Assembly: GCA_964016885.1 (NCBI GenBank)
Contig: OZ024740.1
Coordinates: 346,270,001 to 346,334,000, forward strand
Direction of reading: 5' to 3'
From: Eledone cirrhosa
Taxonomy: Eukaryota
Length of the DNA: 64,000 nt
The position numbers were made by a program, and so were the translations under genes. Position 1 is the stretch's first letter, and every line of letters begins with the position of its first letter. The notes beneath the pieces were generated by a model. That model did not search any database. It was not told the origin of the DNA and saw only the letters and a list, made by a program, of their open reading frames with translations. This document shows, piece by piece, positions 2,918-60,100 of this stretch.

Positions 2918-4118
2918 GTGGTTGAACACTGGAAGGTAATATCCGTAGTGGTAGAGCACTCAGTCCATGGGGCGAGTTAGGTAGAAGTGGTTACACAACA
3001 GTTAGTTCACCATCCGAGAACAATTGTTTCACCTTAGCGGATCCTCAGCTCGTAATGGGCTTGGTTATACGGAACAAGAAGGACGACCGTACGAACGCGC
3101 AATGGCAGAAACCGTCACTTCCCACAGGAAATACTAAAATGCGAGCGAGAGGTGTAAGGGAGATAACTGCGAAAGTCCGAAAAGTTTTTAGTTGATAAGA
3201 AATATTATGATGTTGTTACGATAATTCAGTCAATCCGGAGCTTTGTAGTTATGCAATAGGAATTTCGAGACCTGTTGACAACGTGTGAAAAATTCATTTC
3301 TCCTGTTTAGGCAATCACTATTGCATAATCTCTTTAGAATATGTATTCGTTCGTCAATACATAGTATATACGACGGATTTCCCCTTGCGTATGGCTTGGA
3401 CTTAGTAATGGCTTTCTATTGAATGGAGTAGTCTATACTTGAGTCCTTGAGGGACCATACGTGGATCGCTGTCCGGGTACCTAAAGGTCGACTGATGGTT
3501 CAGGAAACACTCCTTAAATCGGCCCTCCGCAATGCCCACATAGGATTTGACCTCCTGTGGTTCGTTTGGTCGGTTGGAAGTGACCACAGCTTCATAAATT
3601 AAATCGTAACAATAGACAAACTATGTGGTTCTCTCCGCCCTTCTCACTCAACGTTAAAACCAATGTAGGCAAAACATTTCTAGCCCTCTTAGATAGACCC
3701 TTTCCCATAATTCATAAATACAGCTCCATCTTTAACCGACACAAAGTTAAAGTAGGATACTCCTGCGCTAAGAACATGAAGGCCCACATCACCAGCAGCC
3801 CTAGGAGCAACACACGACCAGGGTGCTCTTGCCGTAAGCCCGAAGCTTGCCCCCTTCAACAGCAATGCAAGACACCAGCTGTAATTTATGAAGCTGTGGT
3901 CACTTCCAACCGACCAAACAACCACAGGAGGTCAAATCCTATGTGGGCATGACGAAGGGCCGATTTAAGGAACGTTTCCTGAAACATCAGTCGACCTTTA
4001 GGTACCCGGACAGACGTTCATCCACGAAACTCGTGAACTACGTATGGTCCCTCAAGGACTCAAGTATAGACTACTCCATTCAATAGAAAGCCATCACTAA
4101 GTCCAAGCCATACGCAAG
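2918..4118. mobile_element. PLE fold-back insertion (minus copy 2918-3600 with 3' end; inverted plus copy 3600-4118)
   Basis: The plus frame gives WFSPPFSLNVKTNVGKTFL..CSCRKPEACPLQQQC..IYEAVV..SYVG. Segment 3360-3600 is a near reverse complement of about 3880-4118. Confidence 0.85.
3015..3052 (-). ncRNA. Minimal type I hammerhead ribozyme
   Basis: The minus strand reads CGAG-CTGAGGA-t-CC-gctaa-GG-t-GAAA-C-aatt-G-TT-CTCG: 4-bp stem I, intact core, palindromic loop 3 (AATT) and a GUU triplet. Confidence 0.8.
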
Positions 4119-4144
4119 CTGCAGCCATCATGTATGCATGTATG

Positions 4145-57018: not shown

Positions 57019-57142
57019 ATATATATATATATGGCTAAATATATATATATATATATTCTAAATATATATACATATGACTAAATATATATATATATATGTG
57101 TGTGTATATGTGTGTGTATGTATGTATATATATATATATACG

Positions 57143-60100
57143 TAGGTCCCGGGTTGAGTCGGGGATAACCACAGTAAGTAAGGTACTCAATGCATGGCAG
57201 AGTAAATTTTTTTTATTTTATAGAAGGAGCTTCTACAAGACTAGTACTGTTTCATTCAGATGAAATCTTCAGGAAGCTGGGTGTCATATTAAGTTCTGGT
57301 ATTTATACATTTAGGTAGTGGTAAGGGAGGGGTGGTGGAAGGGGGGGGTGTATTTAGATACACAGGACCATTTCATGGCACAGGCCGTTTTTTCTTTGGG
57401 GAGTGGTCAATTAGCCAGAGTGCTTTTTTGAAATAAATAAATAAGTAAATAAATAAATAAATGAATAAATAGATAAAAGAATAAATAAATAAATAAAATA
57501 AATAAAAAAATTAAATAAAAATAAATAAAGAAAAGCCCCAAGAATAGTAATTCAACAGATATATAGTAGGGAAATTTAGGTGGGTTGGTAATAGAAATTA
57601 AACATTTAACAAGACCGAATCATGGCACAGACTGGGGTGAGTGGTCAAGTTAACATACAAGCCACAGGTGGCCAGAGTGTTTTTGTAGGATGCAAAGAAT
57701 AAAATATATTTACATACTCACAACCACATACACAAACACTTACACACACATATATATACACACACATATTTAAACACTTACACACACATATATACCTATA
57801 TATATATATATATATATATATAGTAAAATATTGAGAAAAATACTGCAGGTAGCACATGGGTAACATGTAATAAAATAAGTCCCTCATCAGTGATTTGCCG
57901 AAGATCATAGATATTTCATTGCATTAATATATATATATGTGAGTGTGTGTGCACACCTACACATTCACACACATATACATACATATACATATATATATAT
58001 ATATATATATATATATATATATATATATATATATACACACACACATATGTGTGCGTATACACATACACACACACACACACACGTACATACATGCACACAT
58101 ATATACATATATTCACAAGAAAATCACAAACACACAAATATACACACACACAGATATACACACACACACGCATACACATACACACACATATATATCTACA
58201 CATACACACACATATACATATATACATATATATATACATATATACATACATATATACATATATATATACATATATATTTTTCCTCATATATATATATATA
58301 TATATATATATATATATATATATATATATATATATATACACACCTACATGTACGTATGTCTCTCTCGTGTAAACTATACTATGCATACACATACATACAC
58401 GCAAACACATACATTCACACATATATATACATATATACACATACACACTCACAAACATATAAAATCTCATATATATATATATATATATATATATATATAT
58501 ACATACCCATACACACATATATATATATATACACATATATATATATATATATACACACATATACACATTTACAAGCACACGCATACATACACATACATAC
58601 ATACAAATAAGTACACATAAACGCATATGCACAAACACGCACTCGTTCGCACTCATACATGATAGTATAGTATAAAGGTAGTGGGACAAATTTTAATTTT
58701 AAATTTTAAATTTTATACTGGGCCTGATAGAGGATAAAATAATTAATGTCACTATTAAGTTATTAATATTATCATCAAGTAATTAATTACTATTTATTAT
58801 TTATTACTTACCATTTACCATTCACTATTCGTTACCTATCTCTTATCCCTTATCTATTCATTACCTAATCATTCACTCATAAATTAATAAATAAATGATG
58901 AGTTAACTAACAAACAAACAAACGGACAGATAAACAAATAAACCAGTAAATAAGTAAATAAATAAACAAATAAATAAATAAACAAATAAATATACAGTTA
59001 AATAGATAAATAAATCATGAACGTGTGCGTGCATCAGTTCATAACTGCGCGTATGCAAACATGAGCAAGTATATACGTGAATTTGTGTGTGCGGCCGCGG
59101 AACTTTACTCAGAGGCATACAACACAATATATAAGACCTGAAGGGGAGGAAAGAAGGTAATAATGAGAGATAGAGGGGAGGATAGAGGCTAATAATGAGA
59201 GATGGAGGGACGGAAATGGGATAGGTGGTGTGATATGGGGGGGGGGTCAGTCGGGCGGGGGGGTCAGTCGGGGGGGGGGGGTCTGTAGTTTTTGTAATTT
59301 GCATAGTTCTTGTGCATGCAATTAGGGGAGTGTTCCGAGATCTTGTTGAGGAGAGGGCCTTTGGTGAATAGAATCTCATAGCTCTTGGAGATACAGAGGT
59401 CACAGCAATTATGCCTCCCGTGTACGATCGCGCTCTCTGGAGTAGTCTCCATTGGTTCTTGAAGGGGATGGAGTTCCTTTTTAGGTGCCAGATGTGGGCG
59501 GCGAGTGTAGTTTGGTTAGATTTGTCTGGGCGCCGGAACGAATGTGTGTGGGCGTACCAGCGAGTCTTAAAACTATTAGAAGTCATCCCGATGTACGAGT
59601 TTCTTTTTTCATCGGGGCCTGAGAGTACATCGCATATATACACGAGATCTTTTTTTAGACAGTTGTTGTTGAGAGGGCAGGTCGTCTTATCAGGGCAATT
59701 GCAGTAGCTATCGGTTGCTGGATGGGCTTCCGAAAAAGTAGGCTTATTTAGCTTCTTGATGTTGTTGTTGGCTAAGTTTCTAGCTAGAATAGGTGTGGTA
59801 GAGTAAGAGAGTCTAATGGTATTCTTATTAAGGATAGTATAGTACCTATGTTGGGTGGGGAAGTGTTTTTGTAAGAGAGTGAAGAAAATTTTAGCTACAG
59901 GTGTTGAAACTTCTCGGTTGAAGGGGGGGGGGGGGTTGTACCGGCTAATGTGCCTTCGCCTATTCATCCTGGGTGGGCGTGGGGCTATAGTAAGGTAGGT
60001 GATCTTATCTCTAAAGCCGCTGCGGGCCAGGGCCTCGTTGTAATAGGGGGCTGCTGCTCTAAAGATATCTTCATTGGCGGCGAGGCTAGATATCCTAATG

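Follow-up and report, generated by a model that had tools for sequence, protein, structure and literature searches.

U·U at the base of stem II in hammerhead motifs of probable Hydra-clade Penelope-like elements of Eledone cirrhosa

Is the U·U found at positions 10.1 and 11.1 of several hammerhead motifs in the genome of Eledone cirrhosa a decayed base pair, a novel variant or an inherited state? The window studied here, by which we mean the whole stretch of 64,000 nucleotides (contig OZ024740.1, positions 346,270,001 to 346,334,000, forward strand), holds many broken retroelement frames in AT-rich, microsatellite-rich DNA of animal type. An initial annotation had assigned the motifs to unrelated families of Penelope-like elements (PLEs), across which a conserved, non-Watson-Crick form of stem II would recur. 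In our reading, the motifs are very probably type I hammerheads, of which at least three lie at the 3' end of a Hydra-clade PLE; U·U fills the G-C position of other members, and the motifs likely cut the element's own transcript. The U·U state as such is already known: it is in print for hammerheads generally and tabulated for Hydra-clade PLEs.

A relaxed type I hammerhead descriptor, composed after the motifs had been inspected, was run on the window and on 1,196 dinucleotide shuffles in 1-kb blocks. It recovered six cores in the window, compared with a mean of 0.40 and a maximum of 3 in the shuffles:

3015..3052, minus strand: 3048 motif, type I hammerhead with C3 at 3048, U10.1 at 3041 and U11.1 at 3031, a 2-bp stem II, a palindromic stem/loop III and a predicted cut after U 3019.
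11787..11882, plus strand: 11791 motif, type I hammerhead in which canonical G10.1-C11.1 (11798/11866) closes a long stem II (69-base stem II region).
13060..13100, plus strand: 13064 motif, type I hammerhead with a U3-A8 core, A·A at 13071/13084 followed by C-G, a 4-bp stem II and palindromic loop 3; single copy.
14128..14208, minus strand: 14187 motif, hammerhead of what we call the 14142 family, with C3 at 14187, A at position 4 (14186), U·U at 14180/14168, a 3-bp stem II and a predicted cut after U 14147.
33682..33722, plus strand: 33686 motif, type I hammerhead with U·U at 33693/33706, an imperfect stem II and palindromic loop 3; single copy.
57228..57278, minus strand: 57272 motif, type I hammerhead with U·U at 57265/57254, a 3-bp stem II with a 4-base loop, a 4-bp stem III and a 6-bp stem I.

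When U4 was made obligatory, five cores were observed against a shuffle mean of 0.12 and a maximum of 2. Judged by descriptor against shuffles, the window motifs are genuine type I hammerheads. The type I core (C3 U4 G5 A6 N7 G8 A9 / G12 A13 A14 A15.1 / U16.1 H17, or its U3-A8 form) is present in the 3048, 11791, 13064 (U3-A8), 33686 and 57272 motifs. In the descriptor motifs three helices surround the core and stem I is open-ended, with 4-6 bp in stem I, 2-4 bp in stem II and a stem III that is either palindromic or 4-5 bp long. Stem II is closed by U·U in four of the six (3048, 14187, 33686 and 57272), by A·A in 13064 and by G-C in 11791. The bases reported for the mismatched motifs by the initial annotation, including C·A at 32954/33052 (plus strand), were all found as described, but its inventory had passed over the canonical hammerhead at 11791-11878 (plus strand).

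Several structural details required revision. Stem II of the 57272 motif had been drawn with four base pairs, which would leave a loop of two bases; it has three. The motifs had also been called unrelated in sequence, but stems II of the 3048 and 14187 motifs are distinguished by no more than one C-G pair and a single base in the loop. Among the U·U motifs of the window, 33686 alone has A-U as its next pair. A palindromic loop 3 had been proposed and is present in 3048, 13064, 33686 and 11791, but not in 14187 and 57272, which have a stem III of 4-5 bp with a loop of 7-8 bases.

Whether standard searches miss such motifs depends on the descriptor. A strict form, in which an extra base before GAAA is forbidden, recovered only 11791 in the window, in line with the earlier expectation. 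Rfam hammerhead models gave no match to the window at the gathering threshold, and at E values up to 10 no hammerhead occurred among the best 150 of 279 matches listed, which were dominated by microsatellite matches. The published PLE descriptor (Cervera & de la Pena 2014, PMC4209133), in contrast, permits a "possible extra N10" and a "possible extra N11". As printed it recovered no motif in the window, because the window motifs have a helix III and not because of U·U. Adding helix III to it recovered 57272, allowing U3-A8 as well recovered 13064, and allowing a 2-bp stem II recovered 3048 and 33686.

Three families lie on the sense strand behind a GIY-YIG endonuclease remnant, namely 14187, 3048 and the pair 32947/28728:

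14118..17500, minus strand: Hydra-clade PLE unit with a 5' repeat hammerhead copy (C3 at 17471), a frameshifted reverse transcriptase (RT) and GIY-YIG frame (17137-15143), a 3' untranslated region (UTR) of about 1 kb and the 3' hammerhead.
32938..33069, plus strand: 32947 motif, damaged type I hammerhead whose long stem II has C·A (32954/33052) at the base; endonuclease remnant 31182-31967 (plus strand) lies about 1 kb upstream.
28602..28737, minus strand: 28728, duplicate of the C·A motif with its 9-bp stem I intact and a mismatch at 15.2-16.2, downstream of endonuclease remnant 29886-29097 (minus strand).

The 14187 motif lies about 1 kb behind frame 17137-15143, and the second copy at 17471 lies ahead of the same frame. 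The 3048 motif is found about 200 bases downstream of endonuclease remnant 3605-3251 (minus strand). In the 32947 copy one base of the stem I register is lost and the three-helix architecture is incomplete; the descriptor did not recover the C·A motif. The endonuclease remnants 1258-1876 and 27174-26944 have no convincing hammerhead behind them, and none lies within 58600-59310.

The window frames show the order RT followed by a C-terminal GIY-YIG endonuclease, and we take motifs in them to be YRDD and VY..YIG. They carry frameshifts, and most copies in the window are dead remnants. Pfam gave no match for 10 non-LINE fragments (LINE, long interspersed element) from the window. Hydra-clade PLEs are marked by RW(K), DKT, CxCX5C and a (TA)n target (Craig et al. 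2021, PMC8557442). DKT occurs in two window frames, RW-P in one decayed frame and CxCX5C in five frames, and RWK is intact in the close homologue P0003. Insertion into (TA)n is seen at 14118, near which the PLE unit ends and 2,301 reads run on into (TA)n, and at 33660/33780, where (TA)n runs flank the 120-base fragment on which the 33686 motif sits. A homology search yielded 71 homologues of 375-953 amino acids. In a quick LG+G4 protein tree of 60 rows, with no named reference and no outgroup from other PLE clades, four window frames form one clade (SH-aLRT, the Shimodaira-Hasegawa-like approximate likelihood ratio test, 99). Since the frames carry Hydra-clade marks and form one clade, the PLE families of the window are related rather than unrelated.

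We compared the 10.1/11.1 position across 78 related metagenome loci, 56 of which have a hammerhead beside the frame. The stem counts exclude the 22 loci without an assigned hammerhead, locus L042 (different architecture) and all window rows. Among the 45 distinct stems II, U·U was the commonest state (23), followed by G-C (14), G·U (5) and A-U (3). The second pair was U-A or C-G in all 45 stems, 11.1 was a pyrimidine throughout, and no other mismatch, A·A included, was present. Mapped on the protein tree, U·U versus the paired state required six changes over 55 rows (shuffled mean 18.5) and four changes over the 38 rows with a downstream motif (shuffled mean 13.0); in each case none of 1,000 shuffles was as low. 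The upstream motif of locus L053 probably derives from an adjacent family and could inflate the number of changes by one, and the tree does not separate gain from loss of U·U. The shared register and the few changes on the protein tree imply that U·U is passed on by inheritance at the position of G10.1-C11.1, with occasional switches. By this comparison, U·U is a conserved, inherited and switchable pair and not a product of decay. Because it is the commonest state in Hydra-type elements, is interchangeable within a single register with G-C, G·U and A-U, and tracks the protein tree, it can serve as a clade marker and gives a reason to leave 10.1/11.1 free in searches.

From what is known of hammerhead structure, U10.1·U11.1 would form a wobble-type pair stacked between A9·G12 and the pyrimidine-purine second pair, and cleavage would occur after H17. 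When loop 3 is palindromic, a hammerhead would depend on a second one in tandem (Cervera & de la Pena 2014; review PMC6765202). For the 3048, 13064, 33686 and 11791 motifs, stem III would be completed by dimerisation between tandem copies; 14187 and 57272 could fold as monomers. Self-cleavage would process tandem transcripts into RNA of unit length, perhaps aided by the element's protein. We favour self-cleaving hammerheads located in the terminal repeats and close to the 3' end of Hydra-clade PLEs because six cores stand against 0.40 in shuffles, the motifs lie on the same strand behind endonuclease remnants, the frames carry Hydra-clade marks and form one clade, and U·U is exchanged for pairs at one position across relatives.

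Several observations weigh against this reading. Minimum-energy prediction gave the complete hammerhead fold for no motif, and six of nine predicted folds were no better than shuffles (z above -1), energy folding being uninformative for short motifs; such short stems commonly defeat it. No PLE reading frame adjoins the 11791 motif (which has a partial copy near 11081-11174), the 13064 motif or the 33686 motif in the window. The 57272 motif lies 2 kb downstream of PLE frame 60859-59300 (minus strand) with microsatellites in between, so that its link to this frame is tentative. The assignment to the clade rests on motifs and homology, because the tree lacks an outgroup from other PLE clades. The 14142 family bears a core change, A4, that is expected to harm catalysis. 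Finally, the hammerhead of one Poseidon PLE needed protein, and its cleavage was dispensable for insertion in vitro (PMC11167929).

In the 14142 family, the 14187 motif has a 5-bp stem III with a 7-base loop, and its stem I consists of a 5-bp stem Ia, an internal loop and a 9-bp stem Ib. Besides the copies at 14187 and 17471, the window contains:

19513..19610, plus strand: inverted 14142-family hammerhead copy (C3 at 19541).
23848..25424: second subfamily of the 14142 family in three copies (about 23916, minus strand; 25007, plus strand; 25370, minus strand), each with A4, U·U and a private core lesion.

At core position 4, A replaces U in 6/6 copies (14186, 17470, 19542, about 23915, 25008 and 25369), and U·U is equally invariant across the six copies and two subfamilies. 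Lacking the U4 of the type I core, the family is classed here as hammerhead-like. Raw reads cover 14130-14189 at a depth of about 6,000-7,500. Among the best 40 of 130 differences listed, the sole one in 14030-14194 was 14143 A>G, which converts a G·U of stem I into G-C. Because no difference was listed at 14180, 14168 or 14186, U·U and A4 are the majority letters, though minor variants may occur. A 77-base contig from the reads of a second organism covers the 14187 motif with one letter different. Identity between the subfamilies was 58/61 (95%) at core-and-stem positions versus 77/94 (82%) in the upstream UTR (Fisher p = 0.025, from one copy pair in a gappy alignment). The fixed subfamily differences near the core lie inside the stem I internal loop or preserve the outer stem.

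As to catalysis, the A4 motif may be active, attenuated, or a dead core in a family that does not need one. A tentative possibility is that the family encodes a working A4 hammerhead with U·U, a monomer-stable stem III and a bulged stem I, in which A4 would act as a brake replacing dimer control, or its effect would be offset by contacts between loops or by the element's protein. This is supported by the occurrence of A4 in both subfamilies, by the better conservation of the motif than of the sequence upstream, and by subfamily differences that spare the core and the outer stem. Alternatively, the fold could be maintained as a signal for protein binding or priming close to the 3' end of the element, with catalysis dispensable. 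Such a role would explain why A4 is fixed in an abundant family, and it agrees with the low activity caused by changes of the CUGA turn in a mutational scan of a type III hammerhead (PMC9901934) and with the insertion of a PLE in vitro that did not need cleavage. However, the remaining core is intact in the A4 family, and the core starts with C3-U4 in 55/61 and with U3-U4 in 2/61 unique matches in relatives, a pattern suggestive of clade-wide selection on the catalytic core. We therefore regard a purely signalling role as unlikely. If the A4 core cleaves, it would widen the natural catalytic core; if not, the family would be a natural PLE family that spreads without ribozyme cleavage, which bears on the role of PLE hammerheads.

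We found no report of a natural U4A in the literature searched, a scope outside which lay Figs 5, S6 and S7 and Dataset S1 of Perreault 2011, Lunse 2017 and Arkhipova 2017. The natural variant of position 4 named as tolerated in Perreault 2011 (PMC3088659) is U4C, not U4A. None of the 78 metagenome loci contained a convincing A4 motif; weak matches in L041 and L038, both with U3-A8 cores, were rejected as likely chance. In viral contigs, stems I and III accompanied the A4/U·U pattern in 1/120 matches examined, which we took as chance, and the U3-A8/A·A pattern in 0/71. U4C cores were observed in two metagenome hammerheads (L016:2464, minus strand, and L026:2928, plus strand), one of them with U·U; as position-4 variants they were likewise rejected as likely chance.

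Returning to U·U, a structural alternative is that the two uridines are unpaired extra bases beside stem II, the true 10.1-11.1 being the next pair. In its favour, the descriptor of Cervera & de la Pena (2014) uses the terms extra N10 and N11, other PLE clades often have one extra base following A9, and published rows show A·A and C·A next to a G-C pair, as is the case for C·A at 32954. Yet U·U of the Hydra type shares its register with G-C, G·U and A-U, the following pair being U-A or C-G in every case, and the next pair is purine-pyrimidine in 0/23 U·U stems of relatives. Hence, we consider unpaired uridines rather improbable.

Decay of Watson-Crick pairs in dead copies is a very improbable source of the mismatches as a whole, and for U·U in the 14142 family it is refuted by the sequence comparison. 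Frameshifts in the frames, private lesions in several hammerhead copies and the single-copy status of 3048, 13064, 33686 and 57272 would fit decay, as would the two C·A copies, which are both damaged elsewhere and have a second mismatch in stem II. However, decay gives no reason for a preference for U·U, and the 45 stems showed no mismatch besides it. The U·U of the 14142 family is invariant in 6/6 copies of two subfamilies, is the majority letter in the reads and is the commonest state in relatives, so that the initial annotation's preference for a conserved variant over decay stands for U·U. The status of the other mismatches in this genome rests on one copy (A·A) and two damaged copies (C·A). 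The nearest analogues of 13064 among the metagenome relatives, in L041 and L055, combine U3-A8 with U·U followed by C-G. The weakest explanation, that unrelated PLE families converged on an undescribed variant absent from published alignments and descriptors, is highly implausible: the strict descriptor finds 11791 only, Rfam finds none, Cervera & de la Pena (2014) put weight on the conservation of G10.1-C11.1 in their main text, and at least four to six state changes on the tree imply some real recurrence, but the window frames form one clade and the variant is in print in Perreault 2011, the Cervera 2014 supplement and Craig 2021 File S2.

The window contains further repeats, which we list as observations in their own right:

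14030..14119: a different short repeat directly adjoining the 3' end of the PLE; reads carry it beyond 14119 into sequence that ends in CTAGT and resembles a Helitron-type end.
51362..54239, minus strand: LINE-like element in which an endonuclease-like frame is accompanied by a reverse transcriptase of the RVT_1 family (Pfam E 2.4e-23).
4765..5307, minus strand: frame with a zinc-finger-like CxxC..H..xxC stretch and no Pfam match; we assume the stretch to be typical of the C-termini of R2 and other site-specific non-LTR (non-long terminal repeat) elements.
38412..39079, 41530..41642, 44596..45104, 46091..46212, 55501..55699, 56692..57041 and 62746..62881: many partial copies of a dispersed repeat resembling a short interspersed element (SINE).
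13810..13952, with a copy at 2737..2877: long imperfect palindrome between microsatellites, resembling a miniature inverted-repeat transposable element (MITE).

How do the window motifs compare with known systems? Natural U10.1-U11.1 hammerheads are described in Perreault 2011, where U-U is the best tolerated mismatch, a finding credited there to Ruffner 1990. They resemble the window motifs in the U10.1-U11.1 mismatch, the 2-bp stems II and the U3-A8 covariation, but the context given for them is not that of PLEs. For PLEs, Cervera & de la Pena (2014) emphasise in their main text a conserved G10.1-C11.1 plus one extra base. Among the 56 aligned motifs of their supplement (Figs S3 and S5, inspected by eye), U·U is present in Hydra and Drosophila willistoni and A·A in Adineta Athena, and one box is printed AGAAA. 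The PLE hammerheads of that study share U3-A8 cores, palindromic loop 3 and the dimer model with the window motifs; their consensus, with one extra base and G10.1-C11.1, has no helix III, whereas the window motifs do.

The closest counterparts are found in Craig et al. (2021), whose motifs were located using the general descriptor of 2014; Liu et al. 2024 (PMC11014351) likewise left the 10.1/11.1 pair free. File S2 of Craig et al., titled as canonical hammerhead ribozyme motifs, has U·U in 14/25 Hydra-clade families (13 distinct motifs, counted by eye) and U·C in one Hydra-clade family; it also lists a Chara element whose C·A lies beside G-C. The variant claimed as new is thus present in Cervera 2014 Figs S3 and S5 and in this file, that is, in published PLE alignments of the kind that the initial annotation had itself named as speaking against novelty. 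The window families nevertheless differ from those of Craig et al., because none of the four short window motifs tested occurs in its supplement, and the Hydra rows of File S2, unlike the window, have neither an A4 core nor A·A. In other respects the Hydra-clade hammerheads of Craig et al. are like those of the window: they are of type I and lie near the 3' end, in 14/25 families a T follows the CTGANGA box and another precedes GAA, and they share short stems II in which C-G or U-A comes next, (TA)n insertion and matching protein marks.

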